Shown here in pieces: positions 3,001 to 36,151 of a stretch of DNA of 64,000 bases; within the stretch, counting starts at the first letter, position 1; each line of letters opens with the position of its first letter. Source of the DNA: a virus; IMG/VR virus record IMGVR_UViG_3300009124_000004; one strand, written 5' to 3'. The notes below the pieces were generated by a model that saw nothing but the letters and a program-made list of their open reading frames with translations, did no database searches and was not told where the DNA came from. A program made the translations under genes and the position numbers.

Positions 3001-6000
3001 TTAATAGAAGGTTGAGTTACAGATCCAAAAGATGCTACAATATTTCCAAGTGCTTTTACATCACCTTGGGTTCTAATATTACCATTGACTTCTAATTTTT
3101 CTGCATCATCTGGATCAACTGTAGCTTGAGATCCAAAGTTATGATCATTAGGGAATCCGACTGCAACAAAAGAATTTTCGGTTGTACTTGCTAACCAAGC
3201 ACTTCCTTGAGATTCTAAAGTTCCTTTCAGAAGAGTTGTATTTTCAGAGGCATCAATAAAAACATGAGTTTCAAATGCAGTAATTGTATATGATAATGGT
3301 TGAAAATATGGACCACCCCCTCCAATATCTCCATCACTAACACTAAGAATATCTCCAACTGTATATGCTACAGTTCCAAAATCAGTGACTGTTACTGATT
3401 CTACGGAAGCAGCTACTGAAGAAACTGTATATTCAACATTTGCAGAACCACCAAAGTCAAATTCAATTACATCGTTTACAGTATATCCAGTTCCTGGTGA
3501 AGTAATTGTAACGCTAGAAACATCTTGGTTTGTATTAACTTCAATTGTTGCTACTACTCCAGTTCCAGTACCTCCCGTTCCACTAATTCCAGGATTAGTG
3601 CTTGGAGATTGTCCACCAAGAGCAGCAAATGATCCACCAGAAACACCACCACCAGCAATTACAATATCAGCAATAGCACCTTGACCAGATCCACCAGTCA
3701 ATGCAATATCTGTATAAGTTCCAGCAGGATAATCTACAATACCAAAAGAAGATCCAATGAAATCCGTAGAATATGTTGTGAAATCTTTATAAACATTGGC
3801 ATTATCTAAAACATCTAAATTATCAATGTCAGCATTAGATGCTGTCAAATTAGTTACATTAGATGATGCAACTGTGATTGACTGATTAGTGACTAAATTG
3901 CCTTGTAATGTTGTAGTTCCAGTTACTACTAAATTGTCATCAACATAAGTGGTTCCATTATTAGAACTTAAGTATAAGTCACCAGTTGTAGTATCAATAA
4001 TGCTATTTCCAGTTACTCCAAACTGAAGATTTCCAATATTCAGTGGAGATGTTTGAAGTAATCCTGTAGATGAAATAATATCATTTTGAGATAATTCAAG
4101 ATTTCCTACAGTAATACTTGTAGGAAGAATCGTAGTTGTATTGCCAGTACCAGTAACAATTAACTGGTCGAAGGTTGTACCACCGCCAGAAGTACCTCCA
4201 ACAAATGATACGGTGCCGTTTTCTTGATCTACAAAGAATGCATTACCAACACGGAAGTCCCCATTTTGGTCCATGCTGGTAAAGAGTGCTCTACCACCAT
4301 TGGTCTCAACAATCTCATTTGCTTGATTGACATTGCTAATATCATTTGTAGCATCAGCACCAGTTCCAACATAACCAAAGTTGTGAAGAACACAACGCAA
4401 TCTTACGCCTTTACCATCTGCAGTAATACCACGCTCACCATATACGGATGCAGAACCAATAGAACGCAGTTCAGCACCAAAGTCAGTGTAATCTGCAAGA
4501 CCAATATATGCAGCAGTACCACCTGAAGATGAACGAATATCTTGAACAGAAACACTACCATCTAAAATATCGGTAGATCCGTCAAGACCATTAAAGTGCA
4601 GTAAGAGTTGTGTGTTAGTATCAACAATAAACTCAGAAGTTGGAACTGTAAATGGAGTTGAAGTATATCGAGCAAGTCCCTTACTTACTCTAAACTCATC
4701 AATATTGCCTGTAAATGCATTAGATCCCCCAAAGTTAGCACCAATATACAGTGCTCTTGATGATCCTAAATCATTAGAATCTGCTGCAGATCCTCTTTCA
4801 ACACCATCTACATAAATCTTAGTTGTTGATGAATTACGAACAACTGCAACATGGGTCCAAGTATTAATACTAACCGTAGTGCCACCAGAAGTTACAATGT
4901 CACTACCACCAACTGCATATCGTACTTGACCGTTATCGAGATACAAACGACCAGCACTATCTCCAGCAGAACTTCTGCTATCGTAAATATGTAAAGTTCC
5001 AGTTACTGTTGTTGGGCGAATCCATCCCTCTACAGTAAAATCACTAGTACCAAAACCGAAATCGGAAGATCCTGCTAATGAAAGGTAATCTCCAGAACCA
5101 TCAAGTAGTAAAGATGCTGTACCAAAGTATTTGATATCAGTATCTAACTGAGCATCACCAATTGCAGTAACTAATTTTCCAGTAGTATCTGCTTCTGCTT
5201 CAACAAATTGACCAGTACCTTGACCATCGATATAAACATAAGTCCCATCATTAGAATCAATTGTGCCACTCGCAAGCACAGTTGTTCCATCAGTATCATA
5301 ATATGTAATTGTATCGGAAGCATTGAATGTTCCAAGTACATTATTCAATTTTAATCTGGTTTTTCCTGCTCCTTTGAAACCAGATCCTCCAGGGTTTTCC
5401 CCTAAAATACTATCAGATGCAAAGTACGTGAATGAGTTTAACCACTCACTACGAGCACCATTTTTGAGATACAGACCTACTGAATTGGGTACAACAAATG
5501 TACACTCGTTAAACAGCAGTGCTGCTTCATCAGAAGATGCATTAACAACTGATCCGTCTACTAAGGCACCTCTACCAGCGTCTCCAGCAGCGTATCCACG
5601 AGGATCAGACCCCGAAGTAGCACTACCCTTAGTAATTACGCTACAACGCTGAATATAAGGTCTTCTACCGTCAGCAGAAACTGAATATGTTGATTTTAAT
5701 CTAAATGCATATCCAGTATCATTTGTAGAATTATAATAGAAATCATTTACACAGAGATCCTCAATATTACAATCACCTTCAATTAAAAATGCATCTTGAT
5801 CATTTGTAGGTACTGTAGGTTTAATAAATGTTGATTTTAACCCAGCACCTTTAATTGAAATTCCGACAGGAACTGTTAATGGAAAAATTTCGTCAAACGT
5901 TCCTGCTGAAACTAAAATCGTATCACCAGATTGAGCATAATTATCCAAACAATACTTTAAAGTTTGAAAAGCAGTGCTTGGAGTTTTACCCCAAGCATTT

Positions 6001-9487: not shown

Positions 9488-12400
9488 CTTAAATCCTTAA
9501 TAATTGGAACAACTGCTTGGTTTGTAGATCTCATACGGACCTTAACCTGGAACTGGGTGAAGGTAGCGTTTGGTTTTGTACCTCCAGCAGTAATATCATA
9601 TTCGTATTTGAAATCTCTAAAGAACTGTTCATCCTGAGTGGTTGCATAATTTGGATCAGACAATTCAATCCAATCAATTTCTTTAGGATCAGATTCTTCA
9701 CCAGTCAATGCTTTGACGTAAACATCAATATTACAAGAACTGCTTGGATTAAATGCAGCAAACTCTACTCTCAATCCAGTACAAGCATTCTCCATAGTTA
9801 CGAGTTTTGTCAAATAGTTTGCTGGGTTGAAATCTTCAACTGATTCAGAACCAATATCAGTATATGCTCCACTATCATTGAAGTAATATTCTTTCTCATA
9901 CGCACCATCAACATCTGCAACTCTATTTGCAGATGTGACCAAACTTACTCTCTGAGTGTCAATAATTGGACTCAGGTTTGACTTTGTGCTGCTGAGTTCA
10001 AGGTAAAGATTTGCAGAAGATGTTCCCTGCATCTGATTGGTTTCATTTGTAAGTGATGCCATCAATTTAGGAACATTAAATTCATTATTTTCATTTAAAA
10101 GAACAGTTCTGAATGCAGAATCCTTAACGTATGAAGGTTGTGTTGGTGAAGAAGAACTGGATGGATTTGAGAAAACAGAGTTCTCAAGCGAAGTTCCATT
10201 AGTTGCTCTATAAGTTGCAATTACTTCAGTTCCAGGCAATTCAATTGAATTAACAAGTGGAAGTACACTTGTATACATTACGTTCTTACTTGCATATACA
10301 TTTGTACCACCAAACGTGAAATTAATTGGACCTGTAGAAGTTCTAGTAACAGGAATTGCAATTTGATAAGAATCCATTGTAATCCACTTGAGATCACTAT
10401 GGGTCTTATTAATGTAAGTCAGAGGGACTCCATCTTTTACATAGTTTTCTGGAATCCATTTGTCTGCTGCCTTAAATCCAGTCGAAGGGATTGATCCTTC
10501 AACTCTACTAATTGTTGTGATCGAGTATACACCATTCGTTGCTGCACCAACTGTTGTTGGATCATAACTGTAAATAGCATCACCAATCTTAAAGTATCCT
10601 GGATTAGTTCCACTTGGTACAGCACCATTGATATTTGATGAATATGCAAAGAAATCGCGGTTACCTTTAAATGATACAGCACCACCTGGAGTTCCATTCC
10701 AATCTGCTGCTAATTCTGCATACTCTTCTGTACTTACACCTTTAATTTCAACAAAAGATGAAGGATCATGCATACCATGATTGTAATGATTGACCTTCAT
10801 GTAGTTTCCATTAACCGTCAATTCAATAGGATCATTTCTCAGTCGATCAAACTGATTTAGACCATCATTATTATGCTTGTACTTGATAACAGGTTTTTGT
10901 GAAATATCAAACTCTGCTCTGTAAAGAGTAAACTTCAAATCTTGCAGTTGATTTGCAGTCCATGTGGATGCGTTTTGTGACTTGAACAGAACGCCAGCAT
11001 AAGGTTGCTCAGAAATTCTGTTACCATTAATGTCATCTTGACCCATCTCTGACAACCAAACCTTATATTCTACAGATGAGGTAAGGATTGCAAAGCAATA
11101 TTCTCTTTGTTCTGCAAGGTATACAGGAGTATCAAATTCAAATGATGTTACTGCAGTAGCATCTTCTGAAAGGTTAACTTGAGATGGAGTTTTGTTCATG
11201 GTTGCAAGAACTGTTGGTCCTGGATAACCATTAACCATCTCTCTAATCTGCATCGTTACAGGAAGAGTTTTATCTTTTGTTCTAAAGTAAATATCAACTT
11301 TAGACACAAATGCACCACCTGCATCCTCTACTAAGAATGATTGTGCGAGAGGGTCATACCATCCACCAAAAGTGGTCGAACTGCTAGAAGAACTACTGGT
11401 AAGAACTCTGCTTTCAGATACATCATGATTAATAACTTCAGCATTTCTAACTAACAGAACATCCTGTTGCTTACTGAAGGTGGTTCCACTAGCACTATAT
11501 GTACCGTTTACAGAACTATCAACTTCACCTGGGATTAATGAGTTAGTTGCAGAGTCAGTCAATCTAAGTACAGATTCACCAACTTTCCATCTTGGATTGC
11601 CTTCTTCTGCTGGATCTGGAATGAACAAGGACATATGAAGTCCACCAGATTCATCAGCAATCATTTTCTTAGCACTAACTGTAGCAGTTGCACCACTAGT
11701 AGCACCAACTAAAGTATCTCCAACTAAAGCATGACCACCATACTCAGATGTGCCAAGTTCATTCATACTATCTAAATCTAAATTCAATACTGTAGTGTTT
11801 GCAGTATAGTTGGAAGGCATTGTACCTCCACTATATGGATCAACTAAAAGATCTCCATCATAATAATTTCTTGGAGAAACAACTTTTGCTCTAAATTTTC
11901 TATTAACATTACCACTCACAAAAACATCTTCACCGACAGTAAATGGAACTGTGCTAGTGACGTTTACTTGGATGACTTTTGGAGTTGAATATGCATTTAC
12001 ATCTCTTCCCTCTAAGAAAGAATAAACTTGAATATTTGGTTTTAATCTTTGAGCATTGATGTAAATGTTTCTAGATCTCTTCCAATGAGCATATTTAATA
12101 TCAACAACTCTATCACCAAGAACTTCTCTGTCAACTCTAGGAGTAACTTCAGGTCTAATTCCAGTTCTAGTTTGACCAGTTCTAGTAGTTGACCAAGAAT
12201 TAGACGTAGTAACCTGTCTAATGGGAGGACCACCACCACTATTTTCAGTTCTAGTACTAGAACTACTTCCACTACTGGTACTGGTCCATTGAGTTTCCCA
12301 TGCATTCCACTCAGTTGGAGCAAAACCAGTATTGGGATCTACCTCCATTGCAAATACTGTTGCCGCATAATCTCCTTCAACACTAGTAAGTGTTTCTGGT

Positions 12401-32797: not shown

Positions 32798-33016
32798 AGT
32801 CCTTTAGCAACCTTTTTATATATCGCTTCGCTCCGCCTTTTTAGGCATCGACCCTATGGCGAATTTTTTACCCCGAAAAATTTTTTGATTTAGCGAAATA
32901 ACGAGGTCGCTGGGGGACCTTTGTAGGTTAGGAGGGACCCATGCATTTTAACCGTAGCGGCCGCTTATATTTAAGGGCGCTAATCGCGCCGACTGCTTTA
33001 TACTAACTCTCCGAGA

Positions 33017-33105
33017 GTTTGTGTTACTTAGTGGCGCATAGTTAGTGATACTTAGTGGGGCACAGTTTGTTATACTTAGTGCCCCACAGTTTGTGTTACT
33101 TAGTG
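33017..33105. repeat. Four tandem imperfect 24-bp repeats with invariant core TACTTAGTG
   Basis: Core starts at 33025, 33049, 33073 and 33097 (exact 24-nt period); internal inverted repeat GTGGGGCAC (33055-33063) / GTGCCCCAC (33079-33087). Confidence 0.9.
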
Positions 33106-33330
33106 GGTCAACAGGTAAGTGTTAGCGAAGCGTCCCAAACTTACCATGGGGAGTGATGCTAACAGCATGTGGCGTTTCTTACACTCATGCTGCGATTCAC
33201 TGCCTGATTTCCAATCACAATAGGCGGTGCCAGTTAGTGGATAGAACTCAATGCCGAGTAAGGCACTGCTAGGGCGTGAAACGTAGAATCTCACATTGCC
33301 CGTGATCTTTTCCAGGAGTTGAGTGAACAT
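33100..33330 (-). CDS. Early small protein, KTSC-like (76 aa)
   Basis: SSALLGIEFYP..G.AYCDWKSG...SLGRFAN resembles the KTSC pattern; has its own promoter cassette. Confidence 0.55.
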   Translation of the reverse strand: MFTQLLEKITGNVRFYVSRPSSALLGIEFYPLTGTAYCDWKSGSESQHECKKRHMLLASLPMVSLGRFANTYLLTH

Positions 33331-34525: not shown

Positions 34526-34584
34526 AGTATTGCAGGGATCGGAGGGAAAGTCAATAGGGGAGGGACAGTCCCTCAGGTGGCATA
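34526..34584 (-). promoter_or_regulatory. Early promoter cassette 6 (TTGACT-N17-AATACT + palindrome)
   Basis: -10 at 34526-34531; -35 at 34549-34554; AGGGACAGT-ccctca-GGTGGCATA at 34561-34584. Confidence 0.78.
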
Positions 34585-34904: not shown

Positions 34905-35516
34905 TCACTTAACGACACCATTGATGCGACGGTGAGTAACCCAAGTGATCGCTTGGATCTGGGCAGCACTATACTTAGTGCCTTCCAGGTTGTTGATAGT
35001 AACTGCTGCCTCACGGTAAGCATCACTAACCTGCTTGTAGAGTTTATCACTAATGGCAGGAACTTCGTTGAGTGAAGTATACATGCCCCTCCAGATATTG
35101 AAGGCGTGACCGTCTACAGTAATCTCATCACATTCGCCGTTGGTATAGATGCCACGGAAGAATGCAATCGTTTTGTTACCCTTAAGGATGGCACAAATGT
35201 TGGCGCTAGAGTCAATCTCACACTCTAGAATTGTGATCGCTTTGTCTTTGTTACCAGTGAAAGTGCAGACCTTAGGGTAATCGTATCCCATGCAATATGC
35301 CTTGATCATCTGCTCAGCGTCAAGGATATTGCGATCCCATTTGTTATTCGGAGACAGTGCAGATACAACCCCCACAACTGTAGCGAGAGGCAGGTTGTAT
35401 TTGTCACTCAAACCCTGACAAATAGTGTGGGCATTGTTGTACCAAACCGTACCCTCTTGAGTATCAACAGGCGTTGCCTGCATGTACATAGCGAGGATGT
35501 TGCGAATGTCGGTCAT
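34905..35516 (-). CDS. Conserved phage early protein (203 aa; DUF7178-like, possible HhH-glycosylase-like fold)
   Basis: Start moved to MTDIRNIL; motifs G..WY..AH, VVSALSPNNKWDRN, K.IAF, ITVDGHA, AAQIQAITWV..R. Confidence 0.7.
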   Translation of the reverse strand: MTDIRNILAMYMQATPVDTQEGTVWYNNAHTICQGLSDKYNLPLATVVGVVSALSPNNKWDRNILDAEQMIKAYCMGYDYPKVCTFTGNKDKAITILECEIDSSANICAILKGNKTIAFFRGIYTNGECDEITVDGHAFNIWRGMYTSLNEVPAISDKLYKQVSDAYREAAVTINNLEGTKYSAAQIQAITWVTHRRINGVVK

Positions 35517-35541: not shown

Positions 35542-35599
35542 ACTATAGGGCATCGGCAGCGGTTGTGGGCACTATGCGACCAGTTCAGAAAGTGGCACA
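35542..35599 (-). promoter_or_regulatory. Early promoter cassette 8 (-10 TATAGT + palindrome, apparently shared with a divergent promoter)
   Basis: -10 at 35542-35547; GCGACCAGT-tcagaa-AGTGGCACA at 35576-35599. Confidence 0.72.
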
Positions 35600-35606
35600 A
35601 CCCCTA

Positions 35607-35636
35607 TTGCATTTGGGGGCAGGTTGCCCCTATGCT
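35607..35636 (+). promoter_or_regulatory. Putative rightward sigma70-like promoter TTGCAT-N18-TATGCT
   Basis: -35 at 35607-35612, -10 at 35631-35636; mirror-image position relative to the palindrome at 35576-35599. Confidence 0.5.
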
Positions 35637-35648
35637 AGAGGGAGGCAA

Positions 35649-35851
35649 GAGGGCGGGATCCCCCCTGCTCTCATTGTTTATTCTTTATACTAACTCAGTT
35701 AGAGTTAGTAATACACAGTGAGTTAGAGTTAATAATACTAACTCACTGTGTTATTCTTTATAGACAACGCTGTTGTATTCTAATTACACAGCACTGTGTA
35801 TAAAGAATACACTAAGAGTTAGGTATTCTTTATACTAACTCTTAGTGTATT
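35649..35851 (+). ncRNA. Hairpin array: candidate structured ncRNA or cruciform/origin element
   Basis: Consecutive stems: 35649-57/35664-72 (two G-U pairs only on the + strand), 35688-96/35702-10, 35713-26/35738-51 (14 bp), 35785-91/35794-800 and 35806-22/35835-51 (17 bp perfect); no credible ORF. Confidence 0.45.
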
Positions 35852-35855
35852 ATAA

Positions 35856-36041
35856 TTACTCTTCAAGTAATTCTGGATTGTATTCTTCTACTTCAGTAAT
35901 CAGTTCTTCATCACTATAACTATTAAGATTATCTGTCAGACAATCAATAACAAAACATTCCATAGTTTTCATATCCATGCCTTCCATAATTTGGTAAGCA
36001 TACTTTTCAATAAGTTCTTCACGATTGAAAACTTTTGTCAT
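35856..36041 (-). CDS. Early acidic hypothetical protein (61 aa)
   Basis: Start moved to MTKVFNREELIE; YA..IMEGMDMKT...Y...LITEV.EY.PELLE pattern. Confidence 0.7.
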   Translation of the reverse strand: MTKVFNREELIEKYAYQIMEGMDMKTMECFVIDCLTDNLNSYSDEELITEVEEYNPELLEE

Positions 36042-36092
36042 GTTTGAAGAAAAGTGTTGGTTTTGGTGGGTTTCCCTCCCCGCCACCCCTTT

Positions 36093-36151
36093 AGGATAAT
36101 CGGTAGAGGGAGGGAATGGGGGCATCGGTGGACACCCCCTGTAGTGTCACA
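36093..36151 (-). promoter_or_regulatory. Early promoter cassette 9 (-10 TATCCT + palindrome)
   Basis: -10 at 36093-36098; GTGGACACC-ccctgt-AGTGTCACA at 36128-36151. Confidence 0.75.

Follow-up and report, generated by a model that had tools for sequence, protein, structure and literature searches.

A probable rightward promoter between two leftward genes

The window (here, the whole 64,000-nucleotide stretch of DNA analysed, IMG/VR record IMGVR_UViG_3300009124_000004) belongs to a T4-like Synechococcus myovirus, for which no close cultured relative was found. Its backbone has a GC content of approximately 33-40%, with a GC-rich block of small leftward genes at 33-37 kb. Gene orientation was inspected across 29-44 kb, and the stretch described here lies between two leftward genes of Pfam/PHROG families, termed A and B (Table 1). 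In the usual early cassettes of the window, the stop of one gene directly abuts the next palindrome; an extra ~255 nt is present only at the gene B/gene A junction, where a rightward promoter (P1), a G-rich leader and five hairpins (H1-H5) are located. A tRNA search at this setting found none. An Rfam search of the whole window gave 0 matches at gathering score, the best local match reaching 23 bits against a threshold of 60.

Table 1 Features of the gene A/gene B junction. Positions are those of the window; the strand is left empty for features without one.
Feature	Position	Strand	Remarks
Gene A, 203 aa, DUF7178 / phrog_3842	34905-35516	−	Divergent from P1
Gene A early promoter, −10 hexamer TATAGT	35542-35547	−
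Palindromic upstream element common to the gene A promoter (leftward) and P1 (rightward)	35576-35599		Based on distances to the −10 hexamers
P1 −35 hexamer TTGCAT	35607-35612	+	TTG invariant in relatives
P1 spacer, G-run/C-run inverted repeat GGGGCA ggt TGCCCC	35613-35630	+
P1 −10 hexamer TATGCT	35631-35636	+	TAnnCT invariant in alignment A1
G-rich leader AGAGGGAGGCAAGAGGGCGGGATCCCCCC	35637-35667	+	Conserved core; aligns with gene B 5'UTR
H1, 9-bp core (35649-35672) with two G-U pairs	35643-35679	+	−19.9 kcal/mol
H1 with T-tract ATTGTTTATTCTTTAT, predicted intrinsic terminator	35643-35690	+	Consensus terminator scan
H2, 9-bp hairpin	35688-35710		Folded alone; in L141, L146; absent from L144, L001
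H3, 14-bp hairpin (35713-35751), then plus-strand T-tract TATTCTTTATA	35713-35762
H4, long imperfect hairpin	35752-35809		Folded alone
H5, 17-bp perfect hairpin (35806-35851), with minus-strand T-tract CTTTATAC	35796-35851	−	Predicted gene B terminator
Gene B, 61 aa, DUF7326 / phrog_1352	35856-36041	−	Convergent with P1
Gene B promoter −10 TATCCT (36093-36098) and G-rich leader	36063-36098	−	Homologous to P1 −10 and leader

The window contains 13 leftward promoters of one early class, in which a 24-bp palindrome is combined with a G/C-run spacer and a CTATAnT −10 element; in 11 of these, the far palindrome end and the −10 are 58-60 nt apart. An earlier note on this DNA had proposed a rightward promoter in a mirror-symmetric position beyond the palindrome at 35576-35599. 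Both hexamers are indeed present, separated by an 18-nt spacer, and the mirrored placement was borne out, with the leftward −10 at 58 nt and the P1 −10 at 61 nt. A rightward TAnnnT at a similar distance occurs at one of the 12 other palindromes, which we ascribe to chance. The layout of P1, cccta-TTGCAT-ttGGGGGCAggtTGCCCC, is comparable to that of the promoters at 34561, 37001 and 37301. About half of the early-class members have TTGnnn at −35, P1 also has a class-type flank, and the G-run/C-run spacer is common to P1 and the leftward early promoters. The window has 3 copies of a −10 region motif, TANNCTRRAGGG, where 0.34 would be expected. P1 therefore shares the palindrome distance, the TTGnnn −35 and the G/C-run spacer with the class, but not the feature of driving a downstream ORF: as the note had stated, no credible plus-strand ORF follows P1, and this applies to the window and to every relative.

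Two features count against P1. The −10 hexamers found at P1 and in its relatives (TATGCT, TACGCT and TAACCT) match TATAAT weakly, and CTAnnnTAG reads as TAnnnT on the opposite strand too. Because CTAnnnTAG is nearly symmetric, a leftward promoter (TAGCAT, minus strand) was also considered for the module. This is less likely, since the minus strand has neither a −35 nor a palindrome at class distance, whereas the plus strand has both, together with leader homology. Judged on sequence features, namely the class geometry, the shared palindrome, the retention in many relatives and the homology to a working promoter and leader, P1 is very likely to be a genuine rightward promoter, as originally proposed.

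The P1 module and its leader are conserved

Relatives were collected by pattern scans of IMG/VR and JGI metagenomes, a looser pattern adding two more subtypes. In total, the P1 module was found as three subtypes in ~25 distinct uncultured cyanophage contigs. A 24-nt leader core, GAGGGAGGCAAGAGGG-N-GGGATCC, is identical in ~16 distinct contigs from both sources, and TAnnCT-(A/G)GAGGG plus several later G positions are invariant across all subtypes (alignment A1). All 16 type I loci listed keep the −35 TTG. The 11 loci counted for spacer length have 18 nt, and L101 and L109 have 17 nt; the spacer sequence varies, with the G-run/C-run retained. The type II module reads TTGACT-N17-TACGCT-AGAGGGCGGGAGGGG(T/A)GGGAAGCA and is located at a fixed 136-139 nt from the DUF7178 start. 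In every relative the module is ORF-free and directed at the 3' end of a leftward gene. A small ORF within the leader was rejected, as its length and frame vary and a start-site context is absent.

The cultured phage collection contained no copy of the P1 module, matches to Enterococcus phages being dismissed as chance AT-rich similarity. A host origin was likewise rejected, because neither the type I nor the type II leader had a match in 185,579 prokaryote genomes.

The P1 −10 and leader align with the gene B promoter and 5'UTR, both in the window and in the L009 homologue. Only these two among the early leaders of the window are G-rich: the P1 leader has 13 G per 30 nt, compared with 2-7 in other early leaders. 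As the gene B promoter and 5'UTR constitute a real mRNA leader that is homologous and G-rich, the G-rich strand of the module should be the transcribed strand. The predicted P1 RNA is strictly conserved, which points to a function, and its resemblance to the gene B leader suggests a common partner. P1 probably makes a short G-rich non-coding RNA, which might titrate a factor with affinity for the similar gene B leader as well. A regulatory role may reside either in this RNA or in the act of divergent transcription. A stronger version makes the phage-only early G-rich RNA, or its R-loop/G4 on the C-rich template, the functional product itself, either priming replication beside a palindrome tract that melts easily or serving as decoy for a factor that binds the near-identical gene B leader; we give this a slim chance.

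The surroundings of the module vary between contigs. Directly after the −10, the type II leader GGGCGGGAGGGGTGGG (e.g. L126:1994-2020) has the four tracts and 1-nt loops of a canonical G-quadruplex motif, and no strict motif of this kind was found in the window, its own P1 leader included. Most relatives have two CATCAG-N5-CT(G/T)ATG palindromes just upstream of the backward promoter (L009:12260-12345; left flanks of L140, L141 and L126, the latter at 1900-1960), which are candidate operators; this position is occupied in the window by the early-class palindrome. In L001 (8219-8330), the module is flanked by an 18-nt direct repeat, TACAGATTGTTTCAATGT, which hints at insertion or duplication. 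In the type III relative L113, the G-rich leader is followed by GTATAAAGAATAAAGAATCAATCAGAATTGCAAA-like units in a long tandem array (3400-3700), a repeat expansion of the same motif.

The order of promoter, G-rich non-template strand and DNA of 28-30% GC is also that expected of a replication origin, in which the G-rich P1 transcript, held as an R-loop on the C-rich template, would prime synthesis where the AT-rich hairpins melt easily, in the manner of T4 oriF/oriG or the T7 primary origin. The type II G-quadruplex motif and the upstream CATCAG-N5-CTGATG palindromes, as candidate protein sites, would fit such a role, and T4 oriF (uvsY) and oriG (gene 34) similarly consist of a promoter followed by AT-rich DNA in a T4-like genome. 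However, the T4 origins use MotA-dependent middle promoters, and cyanomyoviruses are without motA (PMC2984593). The AT-rich tract is present in the window but not shared by the whole module family; compact forms (type II, L101, L109) lack it and have a GC hairpin within ~40 nt, which weakens the origin idea. In addition, the leader of the window is without a strict G4 motif, and H1, directly after the promoter, looks like a terminator. We thus consider an origin very unlikely.

The hairpins are plastic and strand-symmetric

Five consecutive hairpins are present between genes A and B (35643-35851), as first described, each of which was folded on its own for energies and extents. The 221-nt region folds at −94 kcal/mol, compared with −45.9 ± 4.1 for shuffled sequences (z −11.7). 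The minus strand folds as well as the plus strand (−93.4 kcal/mol, z −12.4), and the single hairpins have near-equal energies on both strands. This extends to H1, which had been thought to form only on the plus strand; the minus strand forms it in a shifted register, at −18.3 kcal/mol. The proposed reuse of a CTAACTC/GAGTTAG core in three stems was found to be correct (H2, H3 and H5). As to composition, the claimed AT-richness applies in comparison with the GC-rich neighbours; at 28-30% GC, the stretch lies only slightly under the 33-40% usual for the phage.

TACTAACTC occurs 6 times in the window against 0.5 expected, and TATTCTTTATAC (at most one mismatch) 5 times against 0.9, with four of the five copies within the array. 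The hairpin motif is limited to 35.68-35.85 kb and one related locus at 33.0 kb. A genome-wide repeat, either REP-like or of the dense PeSL type (see below), was rejected on account of this restriction to one or two loci per genome. Cyanomyovirus late promoters have the form NATAAATA (PMC2984593), and TATAAAGAATA was considered as a canonical late promoter; that motif is confined to the array, where a role as hairpin arm or T-tract explains it better.

The related locus (32925-33110) is a second, similar non-coding module. It consists of TAGGTT, AGGAGGGACCC, a GC hairpin, the 14-mer CTTTATACTAACTC in common with the array, a short GAGAGTT hairpin and four 24-nt TACTTAGTG repeats. It adjoins the stop of a leftward gene (33100-33330) and, together with the hairpin array, brackets the GC-rich gene block.

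Short motifs occurring in both orientations far above chance could represent an iteron-like array bound by a DNA-binding protein of phage or host. We regard this as extremely unlikely, because the number, order and orientation of the motifs vary among close relatives, and hairpin arms and T-tracts explain their positions.

A comparison of the array in the window, L141, L146, L144 and L001 (alignment A3), together with further near relatives, reveals extensive plasticity. The number of hairpins ranges from one or two up to ~8: in L009, L145 and L152 the array is one long hairpin region that can fold in two alternative ways, L137 has two hairpins, and L141, L149 and L154 have ~8. The gene B of L152 is almost identical to that of the window, yet L152 has the short hairpin form. 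The array is also not tied to gene B in general, as ~80 loci of DUF7326 homologues, many of them 66-76% identical, are without it. H2 and H3 are missing from L144 and L001; H5 is kept in all four relatives of the alignment. A 75-nt piece present in these four and missing from the window holds an extra hairpin and the sequence TGCTAyAAT, and the 75-nt and 73-nt indels have their ends in a repeated CAGTGTT/TATTCTTTATA motif. Loops are inverted as well: the H3 loop is reverse-complemented between the window and L141/L146, the H5 loop in L146, and the inner part of H4 in L001, the inner H4 stem being one-sidedly variable among relatives.

Despite these changes the arms remain paired. The H3-type hairpin exists in three fully compensated versions, ACACAGTGAGTTAG, ACTCAGAGAGTTAG and ACAAACTGAGTTTG, and the 3' arm matches in every one. 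Symmetric arm changes are, however, also the expected product of template switching at DNA palindromes, and compensated stems could equally act as RNA or as DNA cruciforms. For an RNA, G-U pairs would be expected to favour one strand, but across the relatives the plus strand has 37 among 755 pairs and the minus strand 37 among 739, and the energy differences are mixed. Compensatory changes, which the earlier note had linked to an RNA, are thus present in the arms, but without strand bias and alongside inverting loops and a varying hairpin number.

These observations bear on whether P1, with a second rightward promoter in relatives, produces a multi-hairpin plus-strand RNA acting as a gene B antisense, a dsRNA-like decoy or a small-RNA precursor. 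Eight relatives have an extended −10-like TGCTAyAAT directed into the array (L141:483-491, L144:1144-1152 and six further loci), and the arms stay paired through two to three double changes. The H1 T-tract is missing in most type I relatives, so that the P1 RNA would run into the hairpins there. Moreover, the gene B promoter converges on P1 and has the same type of leader. On the other hand, TGCTAyAAT, which overlaps a hairpin arm, is perhaps no promoter at all, and it belongs to the 75-nt piece missing from the window. Loop sequence cannot matter, since loops occur inverted in different relatives; in addition, the hairpin number varies from one or two to ~8, G-U pairs are equal on the two strands and no Rfam family matches. 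We therefore consider a multi-hairpin RNA unlikely. A single structured RNA of ~210 nt with five hairpins, as had been suggested, is at odds with the varying hairpin number, the inverted loops, the G-U symmetry and the terminator-like H1, and the comparison does not support the array as a conserved RNA.

Alternatively, the hairpins might matter as DNA only, as recombination leftovers or hot spots at gene-end motifs that bound a shuffled cassette of gene B, array and P1, with P1 an inverted relic of a gene-B-type promoter. Consistent with this, the leaders of P1 and gene B are alike but lie in opposite orientation, indels end in repeats and hairpins flip, the module at 32925-33110 has the same 14-mer, and the neighbour gene of the module in L001 and L009 differs from that in the window. 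In addition, the 18-mer GAGTTAGTATAAAGAATA encodes the last codons E-L-V-stop in three unrelated gene families. However, each genome has the motif at only one or two loci, in contrast to dense PeSLs, the leader core is identical in contigs with differing flanks, and the type II module keeps a fixed distance from DUF7178. The latter two features indicate selection on P1 as opposed to decay, and we judge a pure relic decidedly unlikely.

The 18-mer GAGTTAGTATAAAGAATA was located at L016:10043-10060 and also in L002, L006, L014 and L017, and it directly adjoins the 5' end of a tRNA-Asn gene in eight contigs. In L016, a complete 180-kb cyanophage genome, a gene of ~117 aa (MNINDMVGKVF..., 9683-10054) lies inside a cluster of 15 tRNA genes.

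A putative two-way terminator stack

The consensus scan calls H1 as a plus-strand terminator in the window. H3 (plus strand) and H5 (minus strand) also have T-tracts, but their AT-rich stems do not reach the G-C rule of the scan; H2 and H4 have a T-tract on neither strand. The T-tract TATTCTTTAT is found on the plus strand after H1 of the window, after the TGCTAyAAT (P2-type) hairpin and after every H3-type hairpin. H5 bears a tract of the same type on the minus strand of the window, directly after the gene B stop. Such placement indicates that the recurrent 12-mer is mostly terminator tail or hairpin arm. Type II terminator variants (CCCCGCC/GGCGGGG and CCACGCC/GGCGTGG) differ by one compensated pair. 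Counting against termination, several type II loci have a good terminator T-tract on the minus strand only, and four or five hairpins exceed the needs of termination. The stems can largely be explained as bidirectional terminators, an outcome that the earlier note had named as counting against its own reading.

The hairpins are most likely a fast-changing two-way terminator stack, as opposed to one long structured RNA or a replication origin. In the proposed mechanism, P1 would be a working early-class promoter that fires rightward, counter to the surrounding genes, and would use one palindromic upstream element jointly with the divergent gene A promoter. We infer both the firing of P1 and the position of the RNA end. 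As the 75-nt deletion fused H1 to a T-tract, most P1 transcripts in the window phage are predicted to end at H1, after ~40-50 nt, with H3 and its T-tract providing a second plus-strand stop. H5 and its T-tract would end gene B transcripts arriving from the opposite side. With stops in both directions, the five hairpins would form a terminator/insulator stack between convergent units, in which H2 and H4 may be spare hairpins left by recombination. The stack appears to be made of a few short repeats, among which recombination would cause growth, shrinkage and flips, as in PeSL cassettes. The full account, in which P1 makes a short G-rich early RNA and the hairpins, born of repeat-mediated recombination, insulate it from the convergent gene B, has to our mind about an even chance of being correct on the comparative evidence.

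The nearest described kind is the promoter-early stem-loop (PeSL) element, a composite terminator/promoter cassette of T4-like phages (PMC2839356, PMC4122927). Both occur among small ORFs of a hyperplastic region, each with a sigma70-like early promoter, and in both stem-loops lie between a gene stop and the next promoter (here the gene B stop, the hairpins and the gene A promoter). Close relatives likewise differ at these sites by indels and by degraded or multiplied stem-loops, represented here by the 75-nt and 73-nt indels and the L152 short form. In contrast to PeSLs, the present locus has an extra backward promoter without a gene, AT-rich hairpins of up to 17-22 bp stacked up to ~8 deep, and loops that invert between relatives. 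The hairpin motif also occurs at one or two loci per genome, not many; we counted two in the window and one cluster in a related 186-kb genome.

In the REP/BIME elements of enterobacteria, extragenic palindromes form mosaics of alternating orientation at gene 3' ends, where they serve as terminators or mRNA stabilisers, with hundreds of copies per genome. The array resembles these as a mosaic palindrome cluster at a gene 3' end, but is found at one or two loci and is tied to a specific promoter module. A further parallel is CfrI of cyanophage S-PM2, an antisense RNA of ~225 nt that overlaps psbA and a homing endonuclease gene (cited in PMC2984593). Both would be non-coding transcripts running counter to neighbouring genes in a T4-like cyanophage, the one described here being predicted; CfrI overlaps coding genes, whereas P1 points into non-coding DNA. 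No sequence relation between CfrI and the module was found, and the module is without a match in the cultured phage collection.

The locus cautions that striking hairpin arrays need not be structured RNAs. To our knowledge, little is known of early-gene timing in T4-like cyanophages, because the T4 MotA/AsiA system is missing. Here, a conserved, gene-less backward promoter appears wired to the upstream element of a normal early gene, which offers defined targets for the mapping of 5' and 3' ends in estuarine cyanophage systems. The P1 leader is a candidate small-RNA family that is absent from Rfam and from cultured phages, and the relatives provide a natural series of palindromic terminator stacks that grow, shrink and flip.
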